From the IMG/VR virus record IMGVR_UViG_3300027754_000035: a stretch of DNA of 64,000 bases; one strand, given 5' to 3'. Both the position numbers and the translations under genes were made by a program. Positions within the stretch are counted from its first letter, which is position 1. The number at the start of each line of letters is the position of its first letter. The DNA is from a virus. Lineage: Duplodnaviria > Caudoviricetes. Positions 11,295 through 28,224 of this stretch are shown here, in pieces. The notes below the pieces were generated by a model. The model had not been told where the DNA came from, made no database searches, and saw only the letters and a program-made list of their open reading frames with translations.

Positions 11295-11372
11295 ATGACA
11301 CCAGTTTGTGTACAACATATTAAGCGTGAATGGTATAATACAACCTTTGATAAAAGAAAGGTTGGCGGCTGA
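11295..11372 (+). CDS. leader peptide 1 (MTPVCVQHIKREWYNTTFDKRKVGG)
   Basis: 25-codon ORF whose 3' end overlaps the antiterminator segment; codons match array-1 tRNAs. Confidence 0.8.
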   Translation: MTPVCVQHIKREWYNTTFDKRKVGG

Positions 11373-11440
11373 TATTTTGTATACATAACTAATAAAAAAA
11401 CAATATCAACCGTCACCCAGAAATGAGTGACGGTTTTTTG
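11341..11440 (+). promoter_or_regulatory. transcription attenuator upstream of tRNA array 1
   Basis: 1:2 hairpin caaccttt/aaaggttg (11341-64); 2:3 antiterminator 11360-75 with 11403-18 (14/16 pairs); 3:4 terminator aaccgtcac/gtgacggtt plus U-tract. Confidence 0.8.
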
Positions 11441-11469
11441 TTTGAAAATGTTGGTAAAAAAATGATGTT

Positions 11470-11580
11470 GACAGTTACAGAAAGGGTGCTAAAGTAATAA
11501 CAGTTGCGAGACAAAGCGCAGCAAAGAAAAACGAAAAGAAAAAAAAGACAGTTGACAGCGATAAAAAGTGTGATAGACTG
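11470..11580 (+). promoter_or_regulatory. tandem sigma70 promoters ahead of array 1
   Basis: TTGACA-16-TAAAGT near 11470 and TTGACA-16-TAGACT near 11553. Confidence 0.6.
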
Positions 11581-11602
11581 TTAGAACAATTTAAGAAACG
11601 AA

Positions 11603-11735
11603 GGCTTGAAACTCCATCTGTTGAGCCTCCGCCAGTGAGTTGGGAAACCAACAATAAGGTAAAGTCTGGAAAAATCAATTGATTGGTCAACGGGTGTTAT
11701 GCTGCAATACAGAACCCGTATGGCGATGAAATTGC
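11603..11735 (+). ncRNA. putative structured ncRNA, copy 1 (homolog at 24875-24975)
   Basis: Shares an identical 26-mer (gggtgttatgctgcaatacagaaccc) and a conserved-loop hairpin with copy 2. Confidence 0.65.
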
Positions 11736-11770
11736 GATTAAGATCGTTATTTTCTTTATATGTATATGAT

Positions 11771-12379
11771 ATGGGTATACTACATGAATTAGGAACAAAA
11801 TATAATACGGATAAAGCTTGGTGTCACAGATACATGGATTTTTACGAACAATTTTTTGCGCCGATTAAAAATGATGTTAAAAAAATTATTGAAATCGGTG
11901 TACAATGTGGCGGAAGCATACAAACATGGTTAGAATATTTTCCAAATGCAACCGTGTATGGAATTGATTGTGCGCCTCGACCAGAAGTTTTGCAACATGA
12001 ACGTTTTGTTTTCATTACAAAAGACGCTTTGAAAGAAGACGTTTATGGTATGTTTTCTGATGGAGACATTGATATCGTAATTGACGATGGTAGTCATTAC
12101 ATGTCGCAGCAACAAGATGCAATAAAATATTATTGGTCAAAAATAAAACCCAATGGTTATTTTGTAATGGAAGATTTACACACATCATTTGCGGGTGAAT
12201 CACACAATCCACAATATATTGATAGATTACCAACAACATACGATTTTCTCGCAAACAATCTTGATTCGCAAGATGTCGAATTGAACGCAATTCGAAAACA
12301 ATTTTATGAACGACACCACTACAACCGTGATGGTGGATTGCATATCAATGCAAGTCTTACGTGTGTGATCAAAAAGTAA
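11771..12379 (+). CDS. class I SAM-dependent methyltransferase
   Basis: LGTKYNTDK.W.H.Y..FY, IIEIGVQCGGS..TW..YFPNA.VYGID, IVIDDGSH, YFVMEDL. Confidence 0.88.
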   Translation: MGILHELGTKYNTDKAWCHRYMDFYEQFFAPIKNDVKKIIEIGVQCGGSIQTWLEYFPNATVYGIDCAPRPEVLQHERFVFITKDALKEDVYGMFSDGDIDIVIDDGSHYMSQQQDAIKYYWSKIKPNGYFVMEDLHTSFAGESHNPQYIDRLPTTYDFLANNLDSQDVELNAIRKQFYERHHYNRDGGLHINASLTCVIKK

Positions 12380-12390
12380 TATATAATTTT

Positions 12391-12466
12391 GCCACCTTAG
12401 CTCAGTTGGTAGAGCATCAGTTTTGTAAACTGAGGGTCGTCGGTTCAACCCCGACAGGTGGCTCCA
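12391..12466 (+). tRNA. tRNA-Thr(UGU)
   Basis: Full cloverleaf, loop TT-TGT-AA, CCA end. Confidence 0.95.
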
Positions 12467-12474
12467 GTTTTAAT

Positions 12475-12550
12475 GTTGGATATCCTCTATGTAGTAAGAG
12501 CATTGCCTGTGAAGCAATCAAAGGGAGTGCAAATCTCCTTATCCACCCCA
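12475..12550 (+). tRNA. tRNA-His(GUG)
   Basis: ATTGC CT-GTG-AA GCAAT; C73; T-loop TGCAAAT. Confidence 0.85.
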
Positions 12551-12558
12551 AATTTAAT

Positions 12559-12637
12559 GGCCTTATCGTCTACGAATGAAATAGGATTCTGGATTCTCAA
12601 TCCGGAGAACTCGGTTCAACTCCGAGTGAGGCTACCA
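12559..12637 (+). tRNA. tRNA-Glu(CUC)
   Basis: CTGGA TT-CTC-AA TCCGG; GGCCTTA/TGAGGCT acceptor; CCA. Confidence 0.85.
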
Positions 12638-12646
12638 ATTTACAAT

Positions 12647-12721
12647 GGTCTATTCGAACATCAGCTAGTTCGCTAGTTTTTCAAACTGGAAAAGTGGGGG
12701 CAGCACCCACATAGACTACCA
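12647..12721 (+). tRNA. tRNA-Glu(UUC)
   Basis: CTAGT TT-TTC-AA ACTGG; atypical T-loop GGCAGCA; CCA. Confidence 0.85.
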
Positions 12722-12726
12722 TTTAC

Positions 12727-12802
12727 GGTCCGGTGGTGAAACTGAATATCACACAACATTACGAACGTTGAATTTAGGGTTTAACTCCCTACTGGACCAC
12801 CA
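12727..12802 (+). tRNA. tRNA-Arg(ACG)
   Basis: CAACA TT-ACG-AA CGTTG; GGTCCGG/CTGGACC; CCA. Confidence 0.85.
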
Positions 12803-12901
12803 ATTTAGTTGTCAGATGCAAAATTCTGAGTTCCGTTATATTCAACTACCGAGAACAGGCATCAGGAGCGATCATGCTCTGCCAACTAATTAATTTATGA
12901 T

Positions 12902-12977
12902 ATCCGCCCATGTTCCAAGGCAGGCGACAGAGACTCCAAATCTCAGTGGGAAAGTTCGATTCTTTCGGCGGATGCCA
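12902..12977 (+). tRNA. tRNA-Trp(CCA)
   Basis: GAGA CT-CCA-AA TCTC; ATCCGCC/GGCGGAT; G73 CCA. Confidence 0.85.
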
Positions 12978-12988
12978 ATTTAACAAAT

Positions 12989-13064
12989 GCACATGTAACT
13001 CAGTTGGTAGAGTGCGAGTTTTCCAAACTTGCTGTCGTGAGTTCGAATCTCACCATGTGCTCCA
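12989..13064 (+). tRNA. tRNA-Gly(UCC)
   Basis: Canonical cloverleaf, TT-TCC-AA, U73 CCA. Confidence 0.95.
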
Positions 13065-13190
13065 ATTTCCACTAATATAAATGAGATAAATAAAAAACGG
13101 CATGGTCTCATGTAATGGGTTCGATTCCCAACCCGCTGATGAAAATCAGAAGTGTAAGCCTGTATTATGTGAAGTGGAATCAATTTTTAT

Positions 13191-13267
13191 GGGATTGTAA
13201 GAGAATGGCTTCATCGCTTATCCTGTCACGATAAGAAAGTCGGGTTCAAATCCCACCAGTCCCGCCA
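13191..13267 (+). tRNA. tRNA-Asp(GUC)
   Basis: TTATC CT-GTC-AC GATAA; G73 CCA. Confidence 0.85.
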
Positions 13268-13558
13268 TTTTTCAAATACATTAGGTGAAGGCAACGAACG
13301 TAGTTTAATTGGTAAAACAACCGCACGAATAAGCGGTGATCATTCAGTTCGAGTCTGAATCAACAGTTGAAGTAGTAAGTAATGTATTGACACTGATAGA
13401 CATTGAATGTTATAATCTGACGAGATTATGATTAGTAAGTGGAACAACGTGAAATCCAGTAAACACTTTTGAAAGAGAGTCGGTTGAAGTCCGAACGGAA
13501 GTGCAACGCACCCTAAGTAGTGGTAAGAGAATCCACGCTTTCAAATCAATTTTTTAAT

Positions 13559-13632
13559 TCCCGAGTAGTGTCAAAGTAGCACGGAACGCTGTTAACGTTC
13601 TTGTGAGGGTGCGAGTCCTTCCTTGGGAGCCA
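13559..13632 (+). tRNA. tRNA-Asn(GUU)
   Basis: GAACG CT-GTT-AA CGTTC; G73 CCA. Confidence 0.9.
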
Positions 13633-13640
13633 ATTTCAAT

Positions 13641-13715
13641 TCCTATCTAGCACAACGGTAGTGCGTCAAACTGTTAATTTGATGGTTCTTGGTTCAAATC
13701 CAAGGGTAGGAGCCA
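13641..13715 (+). tRNA. tRNA-Asn(GUU)
   Basis: TCAAA CT-GTT-AA TTTGA; G73 CCA. Confidence 0.93.
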
Positions 13716-13724
13716 ATTTTTAAT

Positions 13725-13813
13725 GGTAGTGTATCCAAACTGGTGAAGGAGATCGACTGTAAATCGATTGCCATGTGCTAAACTTGTAGGTTCAAATCCT
13801 ATCGCTACCACCA
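13725..13813 (+). tRNA. tRNA-Tyr(GUA)
   Basis: ATCGA CT-GTA-AA TCGAT; long variable arm; CCA. Confidence 0.9.
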
Positions 13814-13894
13814 AATTTCGTGTAATAACGAACAGATAGGTTAAACCGCTAAACTTCTAGAAAGCTAAAGTTTTATCTATCTGACAATTTTAAT

Positions 13895-13979
13895 GGGAGT
13901 ATCGCATAGCGGCAATTGCAAGACGCTGTAAACGTCTCGGTTCACGCCTTCGTAGGTTCGAGTCCTACTGCTCCCACCA
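13895..13979 (+). tRNA. tRNA-Tyr(GUA)
   Basis: AGACG CT-GTA-AA CGTCT; long variable arm; CCA. Confidence 0.93.
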
Positions 13980-13985
13980 TTTTAA

Positions 13986-14093
13986 TCTGTGTGTAGTTCA
14001 GTAGTAGATCAAAGCACTGCTATGATGGTAAATGACACCGCAAAAGGGCAGAAGAAGCTTAGGCCGTTGGTGCAAATCCAACCACACAGATCA
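13986..14093 (+). ncRNA. tRNA-like RNA with expanded anticodon arm
   Basis: TCTGTGTG/CACACAGA acceptor, D-arm and T-arm GTTGG-TGCAAAT-CCAAC are intact; the central arm is about 45 nt. Confidence 0.6.
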
Positions 14094-14205
14094 ATTTATA
14101 CATTTGGAAATAATATGCAACAAAATATATTGAAAAGGTTGCATGGTGTAAGGTAACATACTCAATCCTATTGTTTGAGAGATTATTAACCACATAATGT
14201 AGTTT

Positions 14206-14277
14206 TTGACAGATGACGTGGTAAAGACCCCGATTCATCATCGGGGTCGGAAAGGTTCAACTCCTTTAATCTGTCAA
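14206..14277 (+). ncRNA. minimal tRNA-like RNA (reduced D-arm)
   Basis: TTGACAGAT/ATCTGTCAA closing stem, GACCCCGA/TCGGGGTC arm, T-arm AAAGG-TTCAACT-CCTTT; no CCA. Confidence 0.5.
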
Positions 14278-14289
14278 TTTATTTTTAAT

Positions 14290-14365
14290 CCGGATTAAGC
14301 TAACTTAGTAGAAGCGTCTGTTTGAAGAGCAGAATGAGTCAGAGCGTAACTGACAATCCGGGCCA
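14290..14365 (+). tRNA. tRNA-Phe(GAA), atypical
   Basis: CCGGATT/AATCCGG acceptor, TCTGT TT-GAA-GA GCAGA, T-loop AGCGTAA, G73 CCA. Confidence 0.65.
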
Positions 14366-14470
14366 ATTTTAGTAGTAATCGCACTTGGTATCGCCCAAGT
14401 TTAACATGGATGAATCGGAGTATATCTATGGATCTGTGGTGTCACGGAGCGGTGAATGATTTAGAAACAT

Positions 14471-14872
14471 ATGATTATAAATACAGTTCCAACGGTACCA
14501 AAACTTATTGCCGCAATAGCAAATTGTTTGCATCCAAAATTGTTGAAACCCGAGTATCGGCAAACAAATGCAAATAATCCTATGTATGGACATTGTTATG
14601 TTGCTACCGAGGCGTTGTATTGTTTGATGAATAAATTTTCATTGACTGATACGTTCAAGCCATTTCAAGCAAAAGATGAAAACAACGTGAGTCATTGGTG
14701 GTTGCAAAGTCAAGACGGAGTGATCATTGACATAACAGCATCGCAATATACGAGTGTTGGTAAAACGCCGCCATACAGCAATGGCAAGTCAAGATCTTTC
14801 ATGTATCCGTCACCATCAAAAAGAAGCAGAAACGTGATGGAAGCGGTTCTGAAAAAAGTTGTTGACCTATGA
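14471..14872 (+). CDS. hypothetical protein with possible Cys-His-Asp (papain/transglutaminase-like) triad
   Basis: GHCYVATEA...SHWWL...IIDITASQY. Confidence 0.75.
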   Translation: MIINTVPTVPKLIAAIANCLHPKLLKPEYRQTNANNPMYGHCYVATEALYCLMNKFSLTDTFKPFQAKDENNVSHWWLQSQDGVIIDITASQYTSVGKTPPYSNGKSRSFMYPSPSKRSRNVMEAVLKKVVDL

Positions 14873-14928
14873 CGAATGTGTGGTAAGATGTTTATAGTTC
14901 GTTGACAACAGCAGATACAATTTTTAAT

Positions 14929-15006
14929 GGATGTGTAACTCAACTGGATTAGAGTATTCGGTTCTTACCCGAAAGGTTGTGGGTTCAAATCCCACCACAT
15001 CCACCA
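14929..15006 (+). tRNA. tRNA-Lys(CUU)
   Basis: TTCGG TT-CTT-AC CCGAA; CCA. Confidence 0.92.
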
Positions 15007-15013
15007 ATTTAAT

Positions 15014-15089
15014 GGGTAACTGACCCCATAAGTGACTGCCGACCGGTACATTCGGTAAAACACAGTGACAGCTTGGAAAGACAGCACCA
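15014..15089 (+). ncRNA. CCA-terminated non-cloverleaf RNA
   Basis: Has tRNA-style spacers and ends GCACCA, but lacks a canonical T/D arm. Confidence 0.45.
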
Positions 15090-15096
15090 ATTTAAT

Positions 15097-15171
15097 GGGA
15101 TTCAAGCTTTAATGGTGAAGCAACTGGCTTTTAACCAGTGGAACACGGATCGTTACCGTGGAGTCCTACCA
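15097..15171 (+). tRNA. tRNA-Lys(UUU)
   Basis: ACTGG CT-TTT-AA CCAGT; T-loop ATCGTTA; CCA. Confidence 0.85.
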
Positions 15172-15362
15172 ATTTAGTTATTTGACAAAGCTAGTCAAGA
15201 AGGTTTGTATTGGGTCGCCCCTGATACTTTTTCCTTGAAGATAGATACGAATGTAGTTTAAGAGAAGAACGCCCGCCGTAGAAAGCGGGAGATTTAAGGT
15301 GCGACTCCTTAACGAATGTAGAACACATTTTATCGTGAAATCCTTTCAAAAATCCAATTTAT

Positions 15363-15441
15363 GGGGGTATGGTGTAACTGGTTAACATCGCACACTGTCA
15401 CTGTGCAGACTTGCTCGGTTCAAATCCGGCTACCCTCGCCA
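15363..15441 (+). tRNA. tRNA-Asp(GUC)
   Basis: GCACA CT-GTC-AC TGTGC; G73 CCA. Confidence 0.88.
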
Positions 15442-15448
15442 TTTCAAT

Positions 15449-15522
15449 TGTCTCTTAGCTTAAGAGTAAAGCCCACAACTGATAATTGTGTGACGACGGA
15501 GCGTTACCGTCAGAGACAACCA
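15449..15522 (+). tRNA. tRNA-Ile(GAU)
   Basis: CACAA CT-GAT-AA TTGTG; T-loop AGCGTTA; CCA. Confidence 0.85.
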
Positions 15523-15718
15523 ATTTTTTGAGATAGCTGATAAGGTCTGAAAAACATGATAAGTAAGACACAAACTGAATAGTAACAAAGATCATCTTTA
15601 GATTTACAAAGGCTTAGTAAATCGATATTATGTGAGTGAAATTTGAGGAAAGCAACTAAGCAACAAGTTTCTGATTACATAGGATCTGTGTATGAAGGAT
15701 TTTTCAAAATATTTTAAT

Positions 15719-15795
15719 GCATCCGTAGCTCAAATGGATAGAGCTTCCGGTTTCTACCCGGACGGCTGTAGGTTCAATTCCTACCGGATGCACCA
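15719..15795 (+). tRNA. tRNA-Arg(UCU)
   Basis: TCCGG TT-TCT-AC CCGGA; CCA. Confidence 0.95.
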
Positions 15796-15799
15796 TTTT

Positions 15800-15997
15800 T
15801 GATAGAGTAGTGTAATGAAAGCACGTTACAGAGGTTAGCTGTAGCTGGGATGATCCAAATTTATTTGGGTAAATGTAAACGACGACTACGGAATAACCTA
15901 TATTTTAGATGTATTAATTCTCATGATTGTCATGTCGATAAACTCCAGTAAGGTAATAAAACTTGAGGTTTGGGTTTGATTCCCAACTCTATCACTA
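15800..15997 (+). ncRNA. about 200-nt tRNA-mimic with a large internal insertion
   Basis: TGATAGAG/CTCTATCA closing stem, D-arm GTGT-AATGAAA-GCAC at the 5' end, T-arm TTGGG-TTTGATT-CCCAA at the 3' end. Confidence 0.6.
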
Positions 15998-16052
15998 ATT
16001 TATAATTGTATTCTATATATGATTGATATTTATTTGTAACAACCATAACAAT

Positions 16053-16409
16053 ATGAAGAAAAAACTATTTGAGAATATCGGCAACAACACATTCAAACTC
16101 AGAAGCAATCTGAATGAGAGCGTTCTTAAGACAAGAATGACACTCACCAATCCTAAAACTGGTGCTGAGTCGGATGTTGATCTTACGGTAACATACACCG
16201 CTACTAAATCATCCCGTGGGGAACGTGAACGTGGTACAGGTCTTCAGTTGTCGCCTGATGATGAAGGGTCAATTGAAATTGAAAGCGTAAAAGATTCAAC
16301 TGGTCAAGACGTTGTTCTGTCAGACTCTGAATTAGAACAACTAAAGGCCGACATCGACGAGCGTTTGTCAGATGCTCACAATGATTACGATGAACCAGAT
16401 AATCTGTGA
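16053..16409 (+). CDS. hypothetical protein
   Basis: ORF preceded by a TATTTAT motif; acidic C-terminus. Confidence 0.75.
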   Translation: MKKKLFENIGNNTFKLRSNLNESVLKTRMTLTNPKTGAESDVDLTVTYTATKSSRGERERGTGLQLSPDDEGSIEIESVKDSTGQDVVLSDSELEQLKADIDERLSDAHNDYDEPDNL

Positions 16410-16538
16410 AGTAATTTCACATTTTTGACGATATGTATAAGAGTGTTTGGTGTTAACCGCACTTTTTATCGTTTCGTGTGTGTGAGTAGTTGATGAAGGA
16501 GAACGAATTGACAAATCAACTAGCACCAAACACATTTT

Positions 16539-16615: not shown

Positions 16616-16672
16616 CTTTTGTATTGACGTTTTATAGGAACGTAGCAAGATGACTACAGTTCTTTTATTAAT

Positions 16673-17497: not shown

Positions 17498-17572
17498 GCC
17501 TCCTAAACATAGATAGCGATGTGTTAGTTTCGTAAACTAAAGAGGACAGTGCAAGTCTGTCATGAGGCTCCA
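17498..17572 (+). tRNA. tRNA-Thr(CGU)
   Basis: TTAGT TT-CGT-AA ACTAA; CCA. Confidence 0.85.
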
Positions 17573-17860: not shown

Positions 17861-18268
17861 ATGATTATTGATTGGGCAATTTACTATCAGCAAAACAAAC
17901 ATCTTCCATATAATACTATTATGGAGGGCTACAAAAAGCATTTGCGTGAGTATCAAGAACGGCTGACTCATATAAATCAAATAAACCAAGCTCCAGGATG
18001 TGGACCAGCAGGCCCAGCAGATCTACCAAATCCTACACCTAGTGTAACTCCTAGTGTAACACCTAGCTTGACTGCAACTCCTAGTGTAACACCTAGCTTG
18101 ACTGCAACACCAAGTGTAACACCTAGCTTGACTGCAACACCAAGTGTAACACCAACTAGAACTGCAACACCAAGTGTAACACCAACTAGAACTGCAACAC
18201 CAAGTGTAACTGCAACACCTAGCTTGACTGCAACACCAAGTGTAACTCCAAGCACATCTACTCTGTAA
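17861..18268 (+). CDS. small protein with a Thr/Pro/Ser mucin-like repeat tail
   Basis: TPSVTPSLTA / TPSVTPTRTA repeats over the C-terminal half. Confidence 0.8.
   Translation: MIIDWAIYYQQNKHLPYNTIMEGYKKHLREYQERLTHINQINQAPGCGPAGPADLPNPTPSVTPSVTPSLTATPSVTPSLTATPSVTPSLTATPSVTPTRTATPSVTPTRTATPSVTATPSLTATPSVTPSTSTL
18032..18255 (+). repeat. coding tandem repeat (TPSV/TPSL/TA units)
   Basis: Repeated acacctagcttgactgcaac and acaccaagtgtaac units. Confidence 0.9.
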
Positions 18269-18291
18269 CACATAGAAGTTGACAATTTACA

Positions 18292-20179: not shown

Positions 20180-23100
20180 ATGACAAAATTTAAGCAACTG
20201 GCACAAGATACCGTGGTCCGCAATGTAATCACTGAGTTTATTGCGACACAATACACACAAAACCAATTAATTTCCGAGACATATCATGGTGTGGACCCGA
20301 AATCCAATCTACATTATGCTATCCAATTGGGTGAACAGATCGGTAAAGATATTCAGATAGATATGTTATGTACATATCTTAATGAGCACCCAGTTCTAAA
20401 GGAAGACATTTTTCAGCGTGGTTTGGCTCGTACCAAGGCATATTTGACCACGCCACTGGGTCGAGGTTTTGGCGACGCCAAGAATCAACAGATGATCAAC
20501 AATCTGTTTAATACATTCAAAAAGAATACCGATAAAGTTGTGGGTCATGGTCCCAGTCCATTTACACCCAGCGAGGAAGATCAAAAGAATGCTCCAGCAC
20601 GTATTCAACAAATTTCTGCTTTGTTTGGTAAGCGTTTTGCAAATATTCAAACAAATCCAAAGTTGGTGAAACAACCAACGTCGGCGGAAGCTCAGGCTGG
20701 TATGGGTCGTATTCAACAGATGTTGGATCAATTGCGTAGTTCTGGATTTGTAAAGGGTGCTGATAATGTAATTGATGAAATTGGTATTTTTGCTCGTCAA
20801 CATCCAGTATTGACCAACAGCATTGTTGCTGGTTTGGTTGCTGTTATGACACTTGTAGCTGCGCCTGGTTGGCTTGCAGGTTTACCATTACTCAAGAAGT
20901 GGGTAATTGGTACAGCACTCAGAACTTTGATTGGTGTTCTTAAAGGAGAAAAACCAACTCAGGCAGCTGCAAAAGGTGCTGCCGTATCTGGTACCGGTAT
21001 TGCCATTGGTAAGCTGCTAGGATTATTTTATGATCAGTTGGCTGCGTGGTTGAGTGGACCCACGGATGGTTCACCATTACCAGTTCCACAACCTACAACG
21101 CCATATCAACCAGTTGCAATGGATGTGGACACAAGTAATTTGGGTCAAGAAGAATATTTGTCGAGTTACAGAGGCGATTTGATCAATAAAGCATTAAATG
21201 CGGCCAGTGCGGAAGAATATCAAACTTACATACAACAAGTTAAAAATTTGGATGCTCAATTTCAATTCAATGGCGACATTCCCCCATATGATGCAACATC
21301 TGCTAGTGGTCAATTACCAGTAGCACCAGTAGCACCAGTAGCACCTGCACAAGTGTCACCTGGTAATGTGTTACCACAACAACCAACTGTTACTGGTGTG
21401 GATATTCCACAAGCACCGGCACCGCTTAATTTGACACCAAAGATTAATGCGTTGAATTCATTGATTAGTTCAACGGATGTAAAAGGTGCTACGGCACCAG
21501 CGGCACGCACAGCTGTTCAAAATTGGGTCAATGGTGTGACTCAACCAGAAGCACAAGCAATGTTGCAAAACCCAAATCTTGTGAATCAACTGATGCGCAA
21601 AGGAGCGTTGGGGATGTTGAAGCAAAAGTTTGGTATAAATGAAGTTAGTGTATCAAAGGAGCAAGCTGAATTGGATTATTTGAAGGCAGAATTGATGGGC
21701 GGGGCAGCTGCACTTACATTGGTAAATGAAGCCAATCCATTTACAACCGCAAAGAACTTTATGTTGGGTGGTCCAAAAGTAGGCGGCGACAATAGTCGTT
21801 TGGATTACAAACAAGTTGAAAGTGATTATTTGAAATTCTTGAATAACATGGAGACTCAACTTGGCACCAAGACAGAAAAAGATACTTTGGACTCATTGAA
21901 ACGCTACGACAAAGTATTTCCAGGCGTTTATGATTATGTGTCTAAAGTCAGAACTTGGTTGTATGGACCAGAACCAGCATCCAACAAACCATTACCGGAT
22001 GCAGTAGTAGTTCCACCAAATGAAACGCCCACACCAAGCAATCCAAATCCAGATCCAGCACATCCTACAGATCCAAAAACAATTCCGTCAGATCCTCCAA
22101 AGCCAGGAGATGCGCCGGTTGCGCCTCCAACGGCACCAGTGCCTGGTGCTTCAGAAACCGAATTGGATGCAAATAAGATCCGAAATGTTAAAGTATTCTT
22201 GTCACGTATGATTGACTTGGGTGATTTGTTGAATCGTACAAATCCAGTAGCATTGACCAAGACTGCATTGCGTGATTTAGCGACTAGTGTGTATACCATT
22301 GGTGATGTCATGGTCAATAAAAAAGTTGATGGTAAAATCAATCCTATTGTTGATAAAGCAACTCAAGGTTTAGATTTGCTTGGAGCACAACCAGAAATTA
22401 AGCCTGCAAAACCAATGTCCAATGTATTTGCCGAAGCTGATACAACCGCACAAGCTGGTTACAACAACCCAGAATTGAGTAAATTGATTGGTGCGTTGAA
22501 GAACGATGTTGTGTTCAAGAATTTGGCACAACGTTTGGGTGTATTGATGGTTGCGAAACCAAATGATGCACGTAGTCTCATGGCACTGCGTAGTTTCTTG
22601 AGTTCTATAAATCGTATCATCTCTCGCAATTCGGCAGCGTTTCAACAAAGTGTTGGTAATCCTGTTGCCGTTAAAAAGGAACTCGAAAGTGACAAGGAAT
22701 ATCTCAAGGAAGCGACCAGTCAAGAAATTATGGCATTTAATGCTGAATTGACCAAGGCTGTTGCAAATCTTGTTGCAGTTGCTGGAGCGTTGCGCCAAGC
22801 ATTTAATCGTAAAAATCCAAAGAGTATCTATAATGTAAAAGGTGCAGCACCGACATCTGCACAAGCGGCCGGTTTTACTCCAGAAAATAAATTGGTAATT
22901 TATGCAACCAAAGAAGACACTGGTTTGATACCATCAAGAGTATATCAATTCTTTGGTGGTAAGTGGAATATTATAGCGGCCAATGGATTGCAACCACTTG
23001 ATCCAGTTGGAGCAAAGAATGCGATTATCAAATTGAATCAATTGGCAAAAGCACATCGTAACGATCTTGACAAGGTTATAAACTTAACCAAGACAAATTC

Positions 23101-23191
23101 AAAGGACAAGGGTGCGGGTGTATCATCAGACGTGGCAAATCAAATCAAAGAAATGTTTGGTGTCAGCGACTACAAAAAGTTCTTTGTATAA
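20180..23191 (+). CDS. large hypothetical late protein with a hydrophobic segment (possible ejected/internal virion protein)
   Basis: 1003 aa; hydrophobic SIVAGLVAVMTLVAAPGWLAG...GIAIGKLLGLF stretch; Pro-rich linkers; TATTTATA upstream. Confidence 0.8.
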   Translation: MTKFKQLAQDTVVRNVITEFIATQYTQNQLISETYHGVDPKSNLHYAIQLGEQIGKDIQIDMLCTYLNEHPVLKEDIFQRGLARTKAYLTTPLGRGFGDAKNQQMINNLFNTFKKNTDKVVGHGPSPFTPSEEDQKNAPARIQQISALFGKRFANIQTNPKLVKQPTSAEAQAGMGRIQQMLDQLRSSGFVKGADNVIDEIGIFARQHPVLTNSIVAGLVAVMTLVAAPGWLAGLPLLKKWVIGTALRTLIGVLKGEKPTQAAAKGAAVSGTGIAIGKLLGLFYDQLAAWLSGPTDGSPLPVPQPTTPYQPVAMDVDTSNLGQEEYLSSYRGDLINKALNAASAEEYQTYIQQVKNLDAQFQFNGDIPPYDATSASGQLPVAPVAPVAPAQVSPGNVLPQQPTVTGVDIPQAPAPLNLTPKINALNSLISSTDVKGATAPAARTAVQNWVNGVTQPEAQAMLQNPNLVNQLMRKGALGMLKQKFGINEVSVSKEQAELDYLKAELMGGAAALTLVNEANPFTTAKNFMLGGPKVGGDNSRLDYKQVESDYLKFLNNMETQLGTKTEKDTLDSLKRYDKVFPGVYDYVSKVRTWLYGPEPASNKPLPDAVVVPPNETPTPSNPNPDPAHPTDPKTIPSDPPKPGDAPVAPPTAPVPGASETELDANKIRNVKVFLSRMIDLGDLLNRTNPVALTKTALRDLATSVYTIGDVMVNKKVDGKINPIVDKATQGLDLLGAQPEIKPAKPMSNVFAEADTTAQAGYNNPELSKLIGALKNDVVFKNLAQRLGVLMVAKPNDARSLMALRSFLSSINRIISRNSAAFQQSVGNPVAVKKELESDKEYLKEATSQEIMAFNAELTKAVANLVAVAGALRQAFNRKNPKSIYNVKGAAPTSAQAAGFTPENKLVIYATKEDTGLIPSRVYQFFGGKWNIIAANGLQPLDPVGAKNAIIKLNQLAKAHRNDLDKVINLTKTNSKDKGAGVSSDVANQIKEMFGVSDYKKFFV

Positions 23192-23210
23192 ACCATAATA
23201 AATCGACACG

Positions 23211-23244
23211 AAAATACATCTGCTTTCTGGCGGATGTATTTTTT
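23211..23244 (+). terminator. intrinsic terminator
   Basis: aaaatacatctgc/gcggatgtatttt. Confidence 0.8.
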
Positions 23245-23249
23245 CTTTG

Positions 23250-23277
23250 TTGACAAACAACAAATATCTGATAGACT
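23250..23277 (+). promoter_or_regulatory. sigma70-type promoter
   Basis: TTGACA-16-TAGACT. Confidence 0.65.
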
Positions 23278-23285
23278 GTATGAGT

Positions 23286-23600
23286 ATGAATAATAACATG
23301 ACAAAGCAAGAGTTGGCAGCATTTGTCTTTAATGATGAATTGAAGGCAGCTGTGCGCAACACTTTGACAAACCATTATGGAGTAAAAGAAGTCAACTATC
23401 GTCTATTGAATTACGGTATGGGTATCGAAATTTCAGGCAGCGACAGTTTCACTTTCATTCGAGACGCAATGACCAAGGTATCTGGACTAGCAGTTGAAAC
23501 CTTTAGTATATTGGGTGAAAATGCAGAAAAGGGTACTGCTTTTTATGTGTATCTCCCAGAAAAAGATCGGGTCTTACAGAAGAAATTGAACAAAAAGTAA
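23286..23600 (+). CDS. hypothetical protein
   Basis: ORF behind a promoter. Confidence 0.72.
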   Translation: MNNNMTKQELAAFVFNDELKAAVRNTLTNHYGVKEVNYRLLNYGMGIEISGSDSFTFIRDAMTKVSGLAVETFSILGENAEKGTAFYVYLPEKDRVLQKKLNKK

Positions 23601-23688
23601 TAAGTATATAAATGTAAAAGAATGTAATTTATAACATTATTACATACTATATATTTGGTACAACAATCACTCTTAGAAAGAATACACT

Positions 23689-23817
23689 ATGTTAAATTTT
23701 TTGCGCAATCTAATCAAGAATCTTTTTGGAAATAGTAGCGGGTGCTGCAAACTTCCAAAAAACGGAGAACTGGCAAATGTACCTCAAAAGGGTTATTTTA
23801 ACCAAAAGTCATATTGA
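23689..23817 (+). CDS. small protein (42 aa), amphipathic N-terminus
   Basis: MLNFLRNLIKNLFGNSSGCCKLPK...; below the ORF-track cutoff. Confidence 0.45.
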   Translation: MLNFLRNLIKNLFGNSSGCCKLPKNGELANVPQKGYFNQKSY

Positions 23818-23869
23818 CAATATTGGCAGTTCACAAACAACAAACAAACAGAAAAGAGAAAAATAAATT

Positions 23870-24571
23870 ATGAAGAAGTTACTAACATTCGTATTGTCAC
23901 TATTGACGGCATTGACCGTTGTTACCGCAGCAGACATCGCAAGCATTTCGCTTGACACGGGTTACAACAACCACTACGTCGTTGATGGTGTCTCCTACGC
24001 AAAGCAAACCCCATACGCTGGTATTGGTGCTGTAAAGTCCCTCAAGTATGCCGATGTTTATGTGGGTGGACTGTATGTGTCTGATGGCACCAAGGATCAG
24101 TCTCATTGGCTTGTGGGAGCAGGCAAGACCGTTTCCGTGAACAAGGACTTTGGTCTGCGTTTGGACGGCACTGCGATTCGTCACCAAACCGCTGCAAGTG
24201 GTTTGCCAAACTCAACTGAACTGAGTCCCAAGTTGGCATTGCAAAATGATTGGGTCACTCCATACATTCGTGGTTCATTCAATCTGGATCTACACCAAAA
24301 TGGTTACTTTGTTGGTGCAGAGCGTGTGCAGAAGTTGCCTTTGGGCTTTACTCTGACTCCCGCTGTTGAATGGGGTCGTGTCACGGATTATGACGCCGTT
24401 CATGTCAAGGGTACGTTGGCTCGTCCATTCACTACAGGATTTGGTACAGTTACTCCATTTGCCGAGGTGGGTTGGTTCGACAACAGCCTCAAGAATGCAA
24501 AGTCTGTGTATGCAAATAATGTGTTCGACAACACTGTTGTGTACAACGTTGGTTTGCGTGTATCGTTCTAA
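23870..24571 (+). CDS. outer-membrane beta-barrel protein (TorF/TIGR02001-like putative porin)
   Basis: Signal peptide MKKLLTFVLSLLTALTVVTAA; alternating beta-strand pattern; C-terminal VYNVGLRVSF ending in Phe. Confidence 0.8.
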   Translation: MKKLLTFVLSLLTALTVVTAADIASISLDTGYNNHYVVDGVSYAKQTPYAGIGAVKSLKYADVYVGGLYVSDGTKDQSHWLVGAGKTVSVNKDFGLRLDGTAIRHQTAASGLPNSTELSPKLALQNDWVTPYIRGSFNLDLHQNGYFVGAERVQKLPLGFTLTPAVEWGRVTDYDAVHVKGTLARPFTTGFGTVTPFAEVGWFDNSLKNAKSVYANNVFDNTVVYNVGLRVSF

Positions 24572-24594
24572 TCCAACATAGAATAAACAAAATT

Positions 24595-24626
24595 AAAAGC
24601 TGCTGGAGAAATCCAGCAGCTTTTTT
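24595..24626 (+). terminator. intrinsic terminator
   Basis: aaaagctgctgga/tccagcagctttt. Confidence 0.85.
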
Positions 24627-24676
24627 GTTGAAAAAAATTCATGTTTTTCAAATTTACGCAATATGTATTAGAGAAC

Positions 24677-24736
24677 ATGAAGTACAGTCTACAACCATCA
24701 TCGTTAGCAGTAGCGGGTCAACCTAGTTTGACCTGA
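24677..24736 (+). CDS. leader peptide 2 (MKYSLQPSSLAVAGQPSLT)
   Basis: 19-codon ORF directly before antiterminator/terminator; codons match array-2 tRNAs. Confidence 0.8.
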   Translation: MKYSLQPSSLAVAGQPSLT

Positions 24737-24807
24737 TACCGATGGTTTACTTTTGAATACAAACTCTCAAGCTAACCGTTGGTCTCAAAAAGACCAACGG
24801 TTTTTTG
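24693..24807 (+). promoter_or_regulatory. transcription attenuator upstream of tRNA array 2
   Basis: 1:2 aaccatc(24693-99)/gatggtt(24741-47); 2:3 accgatggtt(24738-47)/aaccgttggt(24774-83); 3:4 12-bp terminator aaccgttggtct/agaccaacggtt plus U-tract. Confidence 0.8.
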
Positions 24808-24834
24808 TTTGAAAAAGTATTTTCAAAAGGCCTG

Positions 24835-24862
24835 TTGACAAACGATGAAGGTGTGGTATATT
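24835..24862 (+). promoter_or_regulatory. sigma70-type promoter ahead of array 2
   Basis: TTGACA-16-TATATT with TG extension. Confidence 0.65.
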
Positions 24863-24874
24863 GATTACATGTTC

Positions 24875-24975
24875 GGGGTTGAAACTCTATCTGGTGTCCC
24901 CAACGAAGGTTAAAACACTTGATCGGTCACTGGGTGTTATGCTGCAATACAGAACCCAACTGGCGATAAATTTGG
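24875..24975 (+). ncRNA. putative structured ncRNA, copy 2 (homolog at 11603-11735)
   Basis: gggg/cccc stem around the same ttgaaactcYatctgKtg loop; identical 26-mer at 24932-24957. Confidence 0.65.
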
Positions 24976-24997
24976 TAATAGATAAATACAATTTAAT

Positions 24998-25073
24998 GGG
25001 CGGGTAGTTTAGCGGCTAAAATATCACATTTACACTGTGACTATCGGGGGTTCGAGTCCCTCCTCGCCTACCA
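24998..25073 (+). tRNA. tRNA-Val(UAC)
   Basis: TCACA TT-TAC-AC TGTGA; CCA. Confidence 0.93.
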
Positions 25074-25102
25074 TTTTTCGATGAATGCAAATTCATCATT
25101 CT

Positions 25103-25173
25103 CGGTCCAAAGTGTTACGGTAGCATACGTGCTTTGGGAGCATGGGGACAGAGTTCGATTCTCTGTGGGCCGA
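25103..25173 (+). tRNA. tRNA-Pro(UGG), CCA not encoded
   Basis: CGTGC TT-TGG-GA GCATG; CGGTCCA/TGGGCCG A. Confidence 0.8.
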
Positions 25174-25200
25174 GGGAATTTTTTTGATTAACAAATCAAT

Positions 25201-25274
25201 CGGTCATAAGTGTTGAAGTAGCATACGTGCTTTGGGAGCATGTGGAGCCGGAGCGTTACCGGCATGGCCGACCA
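25201..25274 (+). tRNA. tRNA-Pro(UGG)
   Basis: Same anticodon arm as the previous Pro; T-loop AGCGTTA; CCA. Confidence 0.85.
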
Positions 25275-25289
25275 TTTTACCAATATTGT

Positions 25290-25976
25290 ATGAGATTGAG
25301 AGACATAAAGAAAAATCTAGAAAGCAACGTAAAAGAACTTGAGTTGATAGTAGCCAAGTCCAAATCGATAACCGATCTAATGCGACATTTTAATTTTCCC
25401 GAAAATGGAAAACAAACCAAGTATTTTTGGGAGTTGATTAAGCGACACAACATTGATACAAATCATTTCTATGATAGTAAAGTGTTGACATCGTGTGGAC
25501 AATGTAGAAAGACGATTAAAGTTCGTCAAAAAATTATCAACAATTCACGATGCAAAAAAGCATTCTGCGGTTCGTCTTGTTCGGCAAAATACAACAACCA
25601 TCATAAAACAAAAGGAACTCGTCGTTCCAAATTGGAAGCATGGTTGGAGAAAGAGTTGAACAAAAAGTATCCTAGTTTAGTGATACATTACAATCGCAAA
25701 GATGCAATAGAAGCAGAACTGGATGTTTACATACATTCGTTGAAGTTGGCGTTTGAGTTGAATGGCATTTTCCATTACCAACCAATCTTTGGTGAAGACA
25801 AGTTAAAAGACGTTCAAAAAAACGATGTTGAAAAGATACAAACATGTGTGGACAATCAAATACAGTTGTGTATAATTGATACATCGTCGCAGAAGCATTT
25901 CAAAGAAAGCAATTCGGCAAAGTATTTGAATATGATGACGAAGATCATTGACAATAGAATTTTAATGGTGACGTAG
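25290..25976 (+). CDS. Vsr/DUF559-like PD-(D/E)xK putative homing endonuclease with zinc-binding module
   Basis: CGQC...FCGSSC; SKLE..L; ELDVYI..LKLAFELNGIFHY; D..K...C; inserted within a tRNA array. Confidence 0.85.
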   Translation: MRLRDIKKNLESNVKELELIVAKSKSITDLMRHFNFPENGKQTKYFWELIKRHNIDTNHFYDSKVLTSCGQCRKTIKVRQKIINNSRCKKAFCGSSCSAKYNNHHKTKGTRRSKLEAWLEKELNKKYPSLVIHYNRKDAIEAELDVYIHSLKLAFELNGIFHYQPIFGEDKLKDVQKNDVEKIQTCVDNQIQLCIIDTSSQKHFKESNSAKYLNMMTKIIDNRILMVT

Positions 25977-26044
25977 ACCAACTGGAAGGAGTCATGAGGT
26001 TGAGAACTTCAGTAGTGCAGGTTCGAATCCTGTCGTCGCTACCA
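25967..26044 (+). tRNA. tRNA-Leu(GAG), short variable loop
   Basis: TGAGG TT-GAG-AA CTTCA; A73 CCA. Confidence 0.85.
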
Positions 26045-26048
26045 AATT

Positions 26049-26132
26049 GGGCATGTGATGTAATAGAAGCCATGCGAGTCTTAGAAGCTCGTCCCGAAAG
26101 GGGTGTAGGTGCAAGTCCTACCATGCCCACCA
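26049..26132 (+). tRNA. tRNA-Leu(UAG)
   Basis: CGAGT CT-TAG-AA GCTCG; CCC-GAAA-GGG variable arm; CCA. Confidence 0.92.
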
Positions 26133-26142
26133 AATTTTTAAT

Positions 26143-26220
26143 GGCTATGTAGTCCAACTGGAAGGAGACGCTACTCTCAGAAAGTAGATAGTGTAGGTTC
26201 GAATCCTATCATAGCTACCA
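26143..26220 (+). tRNA. tRNA-Leu(CAG), short variable loop
   Basis: CTACT CT-CAG-AA AGTAG; CCA. Confidence 0.87.
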
Positions 26221-26228
26221 AATTTAAT

Positions 26229-26306
26229 GGCACCGTAGACCAACTGGAAGGAGTCGTCTCACTCAAAATGAGAATAGTGCAGGTTCGAATCCTGTCGGTG
26301 CTACCA
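26229..26306 (+). tRNA. tRNA-Leu(CAA), short variable loop
   Basis: TCTCA CT-CAA-AA TGAGA; CCA. Confidence 0.87.
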
Positions 26307-26335
26307 AATTTTAGTTGTTCTTTTGAAATTTTAGT

Positions 26336-26420
26336 GGGCATGTGGTGAAATTGGTATACACGTTTCGCTTAAGACGAAATCCCGAAAGGGGTGCTGGTTC
26401 GAGTCCGGCCATGCCTACCA
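26336..26420 (+). tRNA. tRNA-Leu(UAA)
   Basis: TTTCG CT-TAA-GA CGAAA; variable arm; CCA. Confidence 0.93.
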
Positions 26421-26587
26421 CTTTGCTAGTTTAGACGTATTCACGCCACAGTGAACGAGGGGCGAAAACCCTGCTTAGACGCATTCAAACAAATTTGAAT
26501 GGTAAGACGGCTCTAAACGGTAGAAATTTTATTTGTAGTTGACATCAGCAAGTATGCGTGTATACTATGTATAGTTCTTTTTAACAT

Positions 26588-26679
26588 GGAGAGGTGGCTG
26601 AGTCTGGCTTATGGCGACGGTCTTGAAAACCGTAGGGGCCTAAAAACCCCCGGGGGTTCGAATCCCTCTCTCTCCTCCA
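26588..26679 (+). tRNA. tRNA-Ser(UGA)
   Basis: ACGGT CT-TGA-AA ACCGT; long variable arm; CCA. Confidence 0.93.
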
Positions 26680-26961
26680 ATTTAATACAACTCCACTTGA
26701 CAATGGAACCGAAGACTGATAATATCGTCTCTTGAAGAAATCGGAGATTGTCTAAATTTTACCATCTATATATAGATGGTTGCAAAATGATTACCGATAC
26801 TAGTATTCCAGAATGAAGATCATTCCGGTTCGCTTATCAAAAAAAAGTAAGTACTTGATTGTACTGAAAGATAAGAAAGGTGGTACGACCGAAACAGTGC
26901 TATGGTAGCTCTACGAATCAATAGAGCAAGGTCAAAACAAATATCATTTTGTAACTTTAAC

Positions 26962-27054
26962 GGAAGTGACGTAGATAGTTAGTTTTCTACAGCAGTTTGC
27001 TAAACTGCCGTGCCCTAAAAAGCACTGAGGGGGCAGCACCCTTCGCTTCCGCCA
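26962..27054 (+). tRNA. tRNA-Ser(GCU)
   Basis: GCAGT TT-GCT-AA ACTGC; long variable arm; T-loop GGCAGCA; G73 CCA. Confidence 0.85.
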
Positions 27055-27060
27055 TTTTAC

Positions 27061-27136
27061 GGGCCAGTAGCTCATCTGGTAGAGCATCTGCTTTGCACGC
27101 AGAATGTGGCAGGTTCGAGTCCTGTCTGGTCCACCA
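27061..27136 (+). tRNA. tRNA-Ala(UGC)
   Basis: G3:U70; TCTGC TT-TGC-AC GCAGA; CCA. Confidence 0.95.
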
Positions 27137-27142
27137 ATTTAT

Positions 27143-27216
27143 GCGGGTATGATGTAGTGGTAGCCTTCGACCTTGCCAAGGTTGATGTGAGGGTTCGATT
27201 CCCTCTACCCGCTCCA
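27143..27216 (+). tRNA. tRNA-Gly(GCC)
   Basis: CGACC TT-GCC-AA GGTTG; U73 CCA. Confidence 0.93.
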
Positions 27217-27223
27217 ATTTAAT

Positions 27224-27297
27224 TGCCCGATAGTGTAATGGTAGCACAAGAGACTTTGACTCTCTTTGTATTGGTTCAAATCCAGTTCGGGCAACCA
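27224..27297 (+). tRNA. tRNA-Gln(UUG)
   Basis: AGAGA CT-TTG-AC TCTCT; CCA. Confidence 0.93.
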
Positions 27298-27408
27298 ATT
27301 TTGACGGACGTAAGTTAACTTTCATATAGCCCACGATGATTAAATGATTGCGATTTTGTGGGAGCTAGAAGCAATCAGGTTAACCTTAGTCCGTTAGACA
27401 ATTTATAT

Positions 27409-27494
27409 GCTAGCTGCAATCTGGTGAGAACGTTGGCTTAGGATTGAACTTAAGTTATCAGCGGTGATGGGTTCGATTCCCGTAGTTTGCACCG
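27409..27494 (+). ncRNA. degenerate tRNA-like RNA with elongated central arm
   Basis: T-arm ATGGG-TTCGATT-CCCGT; weak acceptor GCTAGCT/AGTTTGC; ends ACCG. Confidence 0.45.
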
Positions 27495-27849
27495 TTTTTT
27501 GATTTAACAATGTGCGTGTTGGGTGGAAACGTCCAACAGCGTGAGGGACACGATACACCCCTGTATGTCTGACCCGGACGAATCTGATCCAGATAGGATA
27601 GGGTTGAATTTTTAGATTTGATTGTTAGTGTATAGAATTATAGCACAATACCCGTGTGAGGGTATAGGAGACTGACGTTGGTGGGTTAGACAGTAATGGA
27701 ACGTTTTTCGTGAGATCCCCATATATTCGCAAGTCACAGTCATCCAATTTAACACAAACACCCGATAGGAGGATTCCGTAAGGGTTTGGGCGCATGTGCC
27801 GCATTGCTTTTTAGCGTATAATAGCACGGTTTGTGTTTTTAGATTTACA

Positions 27850-27877
27850 TTGACAAACAATAAAATTGTGGTAGACT
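27850..27877 (+). promoter_or_regulatory. sigma70-type promoter (near-leaderless)
   Basis: TTGACA-16-TAGACT; ATG 6 nt downstream. Confidence 0.7.
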
Positions 27878-27883
27878 GTGTAT

Positions 27884-28111
27884 ATGAAAAATGTTTTATG
27901 CACCATGATTTTGATTGGTGGATTTGTATTTGCTGGTGAGATTGTGAAACAAGACACTACACTACCGATTACTGTGTATATGATACGAAATGGAGACACA
28001 GATCGTACTATTCATCGTGTGTTTTTAACAGAAAAAGCTGCTAAACGTTATGTTAATGATTATAAAGAGAGTCACGCATACGAATATGAAGCAGTCTTAC
28101 TCAAGGAATAA
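27884..28111 (+). CDS. small protein with signal-peptide-like N-terminus
   Basis: MKNVLCTMILIGGFVFAG. Confidence 0.7.
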   Translation: MKNVLCTMILIGGFVFAGEIVKQDTTLPITVYMIRNGDTDRTIHRVFLTEKAAKRYVNDYKESHAYEYEAVLLKE

Positions 28112-28152
28112 CTATTTATTGAGAGTGGTGGGTTTAATTTTTAAGGTATAAT

Positions 28153-28224
28153 TGCTGGGGCTTCGGCAAGCGGTTGATCCTCATAAGATCGGTCAAGCGG
28201 GGTCGGCACCCGTACCAGCAACCA
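28153..28224 (+). tRNA. tRNA-Met(CAU)-like, degenerate D-arm
   Basis: TTGATC CT-CAT-AA GATCGG; TGCTGG/CCAGCA; A73 CCA; T-loop GTCGGCA. Confidence 0.65.

Follow-up and report, generated by a model that had tools for sequence, protein, structure and literature searches.

The 64,000-nucleotide stretch of phage DNA held as IMG/VR virus record IMGVR_UViG_3300027754_000035 (Duplodnaviria; Caudoviricetes; hereafter the window, with all coordinates counted from its first letter) carries two arrays of transfer RNA (tRNA) genes, each headed by a short open reading frame (ORF) and a transcription terminator. The two control regions are probably ribosome-mediated, trp-type transcription attenuators, each gating read-through from its own promoter into one array, a reading to which we assign a probability of roughly 0.65. 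It was reached from sequence, conservation, alternative RNA pairings and the match in composition between leader peptide and array, from which we infer translation of the leaders, its coupling to transcription, regulated read-through and feedback. An earlier reading of the letters alone (the original prediction) had proposed such attenuators, and every feature that can be tested in silico, including conserved ORFs, geometry, mutually exclusive helices and compensatory pairing, fits an attenuator of this kind.

Leader ORFs and the tRNA Arrays They Precede

Each cassette comprises (i) a promoter-like site, (ii) a leader ORF, and (iii) a tRNA array further downstream:

11259–11287, + strand: promoter-like site of leader 1 (TTGATG, 17 nt, TAGTTA), its −10 element ending 7 nt 5′ of the ATG
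11295–11372, + strand: leader ORF 1 (ATG at 11295, TGA ending at 11372), 25 codons, containing all 14 array-1 amino acids
12391–17746, + strand: tRNA array 1 (Thr, His, Glu, Arg, Trp, Gly, Asp, Asn, Tyr, Phe, Lys, Ile, Gln(CUG), Cys)
24595–24624, both strands: bidirectional terminator at the end of the gene upstream of leader 2 (23870–24571), from terminator prediction
24638–24667, + strand: promoter-like site of leader 2 (TTCATG, 18 nt, TATGTA), its −10 element ending 9 nt 5′ of the ATG
24677–24736, + strand: leader ORF 2 (ATG at 24677, TGA ending at 24736), 19 codons, with 15 of 18 residues in the array-2 set
24998–27297, + strand: tRNA array 2 (Val, Pro ×2, Leu ×5, Ser ×2, Ala, Gly(GCC), Gln(UUG))

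The short ORF that the original prediction placed ahead of each array is thus present in both cases (11295–11372 and 24677–24736), and translation of the first bears out its description as a 25-codon leader of 17 different amino acids, only Ala, Leu and Ser being missing. Leader 2 must have its own start, since the gene upstream is closed by the terminator at 24595–24624. Related phages, described below, carry TTGACG-17-TATATA in the matching position ahead of the first leader (type 1), with the ATG 5–9 nt after the −10 element, and TTGAYT-17-TATATT ahead of the second (type 2); the spacing of 5–9 nt between the −10 element (TATATT or TATATA) and the ATG holds in 26 of 26 leader sequences, so that transcripts should begin at or beside the AUG. 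The lack of a Shine–Dalgarno (SD) sequence ahead of a leader is normal for this phage, because 29 of the 33 long ORFs in the window are also without one. The motif TGATATATATT was considered as a phage late promoter and discarded, given that relatives carry a normal −35 element (TTGACG) 17 nt upstream and that the motif is not general in the window.

The content of array 1 is as originally claimed, with 14 amino acids, of which 12 are called by ARAGORN at the default threshold and two, His and Glu(CUC), only at a relaxed one; a Glu(UUC) gene with an odd T-arm (about 12643–12722) was read by eye only. For array 2, Val, Pro, five Leu, two Ser, Ala, Gly and Gln are found as proposed, with Ser(UGA) called by ARAGORN and Ser(GCU) (about 26960–27058) read by eye; the Met tRNA of the original list was found by neither ARAGORN nor Rfam. 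In total the window holds 31 tRNAs at default ARAGORN settings and one transfer-messenger RNA (tmRNA). The two arrays follow a division that is conserved in the family, family-box tRNAs (Val, Pro, Leu, Ser, Ala, Gly and Gln-UUG) in one and mostly split-box tRNAs in the other.

The composition of each leader mirrors the array it precedes. Measured against the amino-acid composition of the 26 long ORFs of the window, which served as background for the chance tests, a random 24-residue peptide would include all 14 array-1 amino acids with P=5.6e-5, and the 15 of 18 residues of leader 2 that belong to the array-2 set, with all 7 amino acids represented, correspond to P=9e-4. Residues exclusive to one set, cross-tabulated by leader and array (17, 4 and 3, 12), give a Fisher P=5e-4. 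A chance test of leader composition, akin to the codon-usage test that the original prediction had proposed, comes out in its favour for both leaders. Its further claim of an unbroken run of 15 codons served by tRNAs of the neighbouring array also proved correct, the run occupying codons 8–22 in leader 1 and 4–18 in leader 2. Among the 449 short ATG ORFs of the window, leader 2 alone has such an array-2 run of 15, and only three cover all 14 array-1 residues, namely the frame of leader 1 and two longer ORFs with 32 and 34 residues after the start. At the codon level, 15 of 18 codons of leader 2 fit array 2 and 17 of 24 codons of leader 1 fit array 1.

Terminators and Alternative Helices

Downstream of, and partly within, each leader ORF lie the RNA segments that form the putative switch:

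11303–11323, + strand: segment 1 of attenuator 1, within the ORF, pairing with segment 2 (1:2 duplex of −17.6 kcal/mol in the window)
11361–11390, + strand: segment 2 of attenuator 1, spanning the stop codon TGA (11370–11372)
11400–11441, + strand: segment 3 (11400–11417), intrinsic terminator (stem 11408–11435) and T-run of attenuator 1, from folding and terminator prediction
24693–24699, + strand: segment 1 of attenuator 2 (AACCATC, codons 6–8)
24734–24747, + strand: segment 2 of attenuator 2, starting at the stop codon
24774–24808, + strand: segments 3 and 4 of attenuator 2, forming an intrinsic terminator (24774–24802), and T-run, from folding and terminator prediction

Both cassettes have mutually exclusive 1:2, 2:3 and 3:4 pairings that are kept in relatives through compensatory changes, and the leader stop codon falls within segment 2 of cassette 1 and marks the 5′ edge of segment 2 in cassette 2. 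The elements of the trp-like attenuator proposed to follow each leader are accordingly found in both places, namely a terminator, a T-run and the exclusive helices. In the type-2 alignment, RNAalifold returns helix 1:2 (ACAACCW/WGGTTGT) together with the terminator, with 10 pairs changed on both sides; five such pairs fall in the terminator, and one column pair of helix 1:2 (21:70) is UA in four sequences and AU in four. In the type-1 alignment it returns a 2:3 core helix, TGATATTGT/ACAATATCA, stacked on the terminator, which is read as the antiterminator because GGCGG extends the helix into the left arm of the terminator.

Which of these pairings forms is predicted to depend on where the ribosome stands, as modelled by constrained folding of six family members in which parts of the RNA were masked to mimic ribosome positions. 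The naked full-length RNA is predicted to form 1:2 and the terminator; when a ribosome stalls at codon 6, 10 or 14 before the terminator has gained its 3′ arm, 2:3 pairs at a predicted −10.6 to −28.0 kcal/mol; and with the ribosome at the stop codon the terminator alone is formed. The type-1 family means are −13.7 kcal/mol for the 1:2 duplex and −19.1 kcal/mol for 2:3, compared with −7.6 for shuffled sequences, and the cognate type-2 2:3 duplex reaches −15.0 against −7.5 for shuffles. The type-2 terminators occur in three sequence variants, and segment 2 changes in step with them: the 2:3 duplexes of the variant of the window and locus L122 measure −17.0 and −23.8 with their own partner, in comparison with means of −8.0 and −9.0 with the partners of others, the preference being small in the remaining type-2 sequences. 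A search of positions 9000–30000 with the Rfam leader families (Trp_leader, His_leader, Leu_leader, Thr_leader and others) gave no match at E<=1, and the T-box model likewise had no match in the Rfam search of that interval.

Conservation in Related Phages

Related loci were gathered from IMG/VR by three routes, including (i) a search with the protein encoded upstream of leader 1, yielding 487 related stretches, (ii) the same with the gene upstream of leader 2, yielding five stretches, all adjoining tRNA arrays, and (iii) a pattern drawn from the conserved element that lies 3′ of both cassettes, yielding 66 stretches, about 45 of them true copies. Homologous cassettes were recognized in about 25 related phage contigs, all adjoining tRNA arrays, and these divide the tRNAs between them in the same way as in the window. 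The leader/array match that the original prediction had wanted checked in homologous phages is found there; homologues of leader 1 occur in 15 other contigs. In these relatives the whole layout is repeated: the promoter and short ORF come first, then the terminator, one or two strong promoters, the structured RNA and the tRNA array. The 20 exact matches that IMG/VR gives to a type-1 leader pattern all belong to contigs of this family of tRNA-array phages, with a tRNA array 3′ of the pattern wherever flanking sequence is present.

The type-1 leaders follow the consensus M(R/K)V(Q/H)YT(H/N)IKRW(D/N)TFTNCEC..DIV, with variants in the window, in locus L125 and in the L083 lineage, and the type-2 leaders are exemplified by MILSSQPSLVSQAPSGY, MLNNVQPSASSQSPNGD and MNLSVQSSVASGQPSPSLLPSAS. 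When the family is pooled, the cognate set accounts for 86% of type-1 residues (background 64%) and 85% of type-2 residues (background 45%); single leaders cover 11–14 of the 14 amino acids in type 1 and 6–7 of the 7 in type 2. The match is concentrated in the core of the leader, where stalling of the ribosome would keep segment 2 available for pairing. With zones drawn after inspection of the data, 213 of 214 core residues (14 distinct type-1 peptides) and 116 of 119 (10 distinct type-2 peptides) are in the set; the ORF ends, namely the three codons that follow the start and a few codons before the stop, have background composition. The positions of Cys, Tyr, Glu and Asp differ between the subtype of the window and L125 and the main leader-1 subtype, and all 14 amino acids are nevertheless present in leader 1 of the window and in four sequences of the main subtype. 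Since the subtypes move these four residues and still keep the complete set, the pattern points to selection on the amino-acid set of leader 1 rather than on its peptide sequence.

Evidence that the leaders are coding comes from the absence of in-frame stops in 16 type-1 and 10 type-2 leaders and, for type 1, from codon comparisons in which 130 of 373 pairwise differences are synonymous in frame, whereas the two shifted frames give 47 of 340 and 56 of 359; variation is greatest at the third codon position. A single anecdote of a leader that follows its array comes from the more distant L083 lineage (L083, 2664–2735 and 9569–9751), in which leader 1 has a Leu codon, TTG, and array 1 includes Leu(CAA) and Leu(UAA).

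Downstream Promoters and the Weighing of Alternatives

Between each terminator and its array lie further promoters, which bear on how much of the array transcription an attenuator could govern:

11468–11579, + strand: two tandem sigma70-like promoters 3′ of terminator 1 (11468–11495, TTGACA-16-TAAAGT; 11552–11579, TTGACA-16-TAGACT)
24835–24862, + strand: sigma70-like promoter 3′ of terminator 2 (TTGACA-16-TATATT with a TG extension)

Several observations weigh against the attenuator reading, and these promoters are the first of them. Two near-consensus sigma70-like promoters in cassette 1 and one in cassette 2 stand between terminator and array, further promoters occur within the arrays (13387–13416, 25849–25876 and 26539–26566), and the leader promoter does not emerge as the main or only promoter of either array; the attenuators are therefore only one input to array transcription, to which read-through may contribute little. 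The original prediction had named transcription of the arrays wholly from downstream sigma70 promoters as one of the observations that would refute it, and the presence of such promoters keeps that objection partly alive. Secondly, the codons of leader 1 that array 1 does not serve comprise one Pro, three Val, CAA and two GGC, and the CAA and GGC codons need Gln(UUG) and Gly(GCC), both of which are encoded in array 2. Thirdly, the division into core and ends from which 213/214 and 116/119 derive was chosen once the data had been seen, and the sequences are related, so that pooled P values overstate their independence. Fourthly, the coding signature of the type-2 leaders is weak (40 of 209 codon differences synonymous in frame, against 16 of 233 and 34 of 221 out of frame). 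Finally, leaders remain full samplers in relatives whose arrays look smaller, which makes fine tracking of array content by the leader no more than a possibility; many loci of the relatives are truncated, and odd tRNAs escape ARAGORN.

The post-terminator promoters are themselves kept in relatives and have A/T-rich tracts upstream, resembling promoters of ribosomal RNA (rRNA). Promoters of this stable-RNA type may shut down when charged tRNA is scarce, and the attenuated route may open under those conditions. Transcripts of the region are available as metatranscriptome contigs from two studies, which show neither true ends nor levels and whose libraries may contain DNA; stretches that no contig covers carry no meaning. 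For cassette 1, contigs start at 11304 (X15), 11313 (X18) and 11316 (X17), 9–21 nt past the ATG of leader 1, and cross the terminator into the structured RNA and beyond; the X15 contig has a depth of 29 in comparison with about 4 for the upstream gene, although contigs cannot show levels. For cassette 2, contigs start at 24682 (X17), 5 nt past the ATG of leader 2, and at 24707 (X15), and both cross the terminator. Together the contigs hint weakly at activity of the leader promoters and at a degree of read-through.

The arrangement of promoters and terminators also suits another explanation, in which each leader is an independent micro-protein gene with a promoter of its own, a 17–27 residue product and a terminator that closes the gene and insulates the array promoters, the match to the arrays being due to some other cause or to chance. 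Each cassette indeed has its own promoter and a strong terminator, with strong array promoters immediately after, and the type-1 peptides have a well conserved order and a CxC motif. A plain terminator would nevertheless have no need of segment 2, which is complementary to the left arm of the terminator across three terminator variants, nor of a stop codon that always falls within or beside that segment. The type-2 peptides are of low complexity and vary freely within their set, each of the two peptides, which are unrelated, matches the array behind it but not the second array, and the in-set rule is limited to the core; micro-proteins are consequently an unlikely account of the cassettes.

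A second explanation retains the attenuators and changes the signal, which could be the translation rate, transcription-translation coupling or, for type 1, a small molecule acting on a TnaC-like arrest peptide. Any slowing of elongation would flip the same switch, and the conserved order of the type-1 peptide is what an arrest peptide would show; that order is, however, explained by the constraints of RNA structure, and a general sensor requires neither two complementary, array-matched leaders nor cores as pure as 213/214 and 116/119. Sensing of something other than the tRNA supply hence appears improbable. Least probable is that the cassettes specify small non-coding RNAs (about 130–150 nt) or simple transcriptional insulators with incidental ORFs, because, even though the conserved helices engage most of each ORF, the length, start and stop of the ORF are kept in 26 sequences, type 1 has its in-frame synonymous excess, and set membership is kept where nucleotides differ.

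Proposed Mechanism and Implications

In the attenuator reading, transcription would begin no more than about 3 nt from the leader AUG, as the promoter spacing suggests, and a ribosome would translate the leader of 19–25 codons. Three outcomes can be envisaged: (i) when decoding is prompt, the ribosome would reach the stop codon and mask segment 2, the 3:4 terminator would form and the transcript would end before the array; (ii) when charged tRNA for a core codon is scarce, the ribosome would stall on or beyond segment 1, the 2:3 antiterminator would form and polymerase would enter the array; and (iii) in the absence of translation, 1:2 and 3:4 would form and transcription would stop. Because the core is spelled almost only in amino acids that the array serves, read-through would supply the tRNAs that lift the stall from which it arose. 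The outcome would be negative feedback on tRNA supply, split into a 14-amino-acid and a 7-amino-acid circuit, by which the phage probably raises its tRNA output when the leader codons are read slowly.

The wider proposal, which we regard as a little better than an even bet, is that the arrays stand under ribosome-read negative feedback through leaders that contain one of each amino acid, providing tRNA replacement on demand, with a pseudoknotted RNA at the head of each array (described below) as a further element of the control region. Anticodon nucleases or starvation would be examples only of the trigger. The role of phage tRNAs and the control of their supply are under active debate, with codon compensation set against the replacement of tRNAs destroyed by host defences (PMC10264068, PMC11555353, PMC11464382). 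A search of the full-text literature returned no paper linking leader peptides or attenuators to phage or other tRNA genes. If the proposal is true, the arrays would provide the first known example of attenuation acting on tRNA genes, and the tRNAs produced would decode the leader itself; each cassette would gauge, in compact form, the decoding capacity for many amino acids together, and a giant phage could make good its tRNA losses as the need arises, for instance when host tRNAs have been cleaved or have decayed. The cassettes would also offer synthetic biology a natural multi-codon sensor.

Pseudoknotted RNA at the Head of Both Arrays

The conserved element 3′ of both cassettes, which comes immediately after the array promoters, is a structured RNA present in two forms:

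11602–11729, + strand: long form of the conserved pseudoknotted RNA, at the head of the array-1 transcript
24875–24969, + strand: short form of the conserved pseudoknotted RNA, at the head of the array-2 transcript

A total of 33 distinct copies are available, the two of the window and 31 in loci L087–L151. The fold comprises (i) a short stem, P1, with a loop that pairs to sequence further 3′ and so forms the pseudoknot (ATCTGKTG/CAMTTGAT), and (ii) a long irregular hairpin with the conserved internal loops GGTGWTAT and AGAACC, to which the long form adds an inserted domain; compensatory changes occur in every helix. In some relatives the RNA follows the first tRNA and a small ORF, and hence is not strictly promoter-proximal. 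It matches no Rfam family, and its 20-nt core has no exact match in IMG/VR; about one third of the IMG/VR matches to a looser 5′ pattern are chance matches. A gapped pattern recovered 117 stretches from bacterial genomes, all of them chance matches except for L188 and L265, apparent mis-binned phage fragments, and gave no pointer to a host or to an origin in one. The element seems most likely to be a processed stable RNA or a processing signal.

Other Features of the Window

The ORF at 11699–12379, between the structured RNA and the first array-1 tRNA, encodes a methyltransferase (Methyltransf_24/FtsJ-like), an insert that is absent from most relatives; its true start is probably further downstream than the first ATG, because that ATG falls within the conserved RNA motif. 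In array 2, an ORF resembling HNH/homing endonucleases (25227–25976) begins within a divergent second copy of tRNA-Pro(UGG) (25201–25274), which suggests insertion of an endonuclease with target duplication inside the array.

Several tRNAs have unusual T-arms (for example GGGGGCAGCACCC and GGAGCGTTACCG) and are missed or scored low by ARAGORN, including those at 12643–12722, 15097–15171, 15449–15522, 17498–17569, 25201–25274 and 26960–27058, among which Glu(UUC), Thr(CGU) and Ser(GCU) were identified by eye. Four tRNA-like genes (13986–14092, 15247–15320, 27409–27493 and 12559–12637) have odd anticodon regions, and among them are an insert of 32 nt, a loop of 8 nt and a four-base anticodon call (tagg). 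In relatives, the gene homologous to that at 12559–12637 receives a four-base call, ctct. Downstream of array 2 lies the tmRNA:

28247–28634, downstream of array 2: tmRNA with the tag AEENVVSYDFSYENVGAVAA

The tmRNA is the deepest RNA contig of the region in one metatranscriptome (122.8 in X17).

The window encodes tail-fibre, HNH and GP88-like proteins. A/T-rich motifs, similar to TATAACAT or AATAAT, precede many ORF starts, and two distant genes (18028–18281 and 56222–56683) share short-period coding repeats of 12/18 nt (repeat family D1/D6). Near-identical DNA is present in freshwater and lake metagenomes, and blastn with both cassettes found no match among cultured phages. Naming of the host through the neighbouring GP88-like protein was abandoned, as tblastn returned only actinophage proteins at 28–33% identity, too weak for the purpose.

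Comparison with Known Systems

Leader-peptide attenuators of enterobacteria include trpL, hisL, leuL, thrL and pheL, as well as the multivalent leaders of ilvGMEDA and thr. Compared to these, the phage cassettes preserve the short ORF (translated in the enterobacterial cases), the intrinsic terminator, the exclusive 1:2, 2:3 and 3:4 pairings and codons linked to the function of the genes controlled, and, like the ilv and thr leaders, they would sense several amino acids at once. On the other hand, they are encoded by a phage, their targets would be tRNAs instead of biosynthetic enzymes, their leaders are one-of-each samplers of 7 or 14 amino acids rather than runs of a single codon, the transcript probably starts at the AUG, and extra promoters lie between terminator and target. 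In E. coli, pheST is also subject to attenuation. The mechanism of leader-peptide attenuation is summarised in PMC4007540, which reports that leaderless leader peptides of Deinococcus deserti are predicted to attenuate genes for aminoacyl-tRNA synthetases and amino-acid genes. These resemble the phage cassettes in placing genes of the translation apparatus behind a leader peptide and in a transcription start that coincides with the leader start codon, as is probable for the phage; they differ in that their targets are protein genes for one amino acid each, whereas those of the phage would be RNA genes for many amino acids whose product would decode the leader.

T-box riboswitches also report tRNA charging and act through a terminator/antiterminator switch, but they bind the tRNA directly and need no ORF, in contrast to the phage switch, whose geometry depends on one. 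With respect to phage tRNAs, PMC10264068, which addresses their function, contains nothing on attenuators, leaders, promoters or terminators and leaves their regulation unmentioned; the tRNA replacement sets described in PMC10264068, PMC11555353 and PMC11464382 supply a motive for a tRNA output that follows demand.

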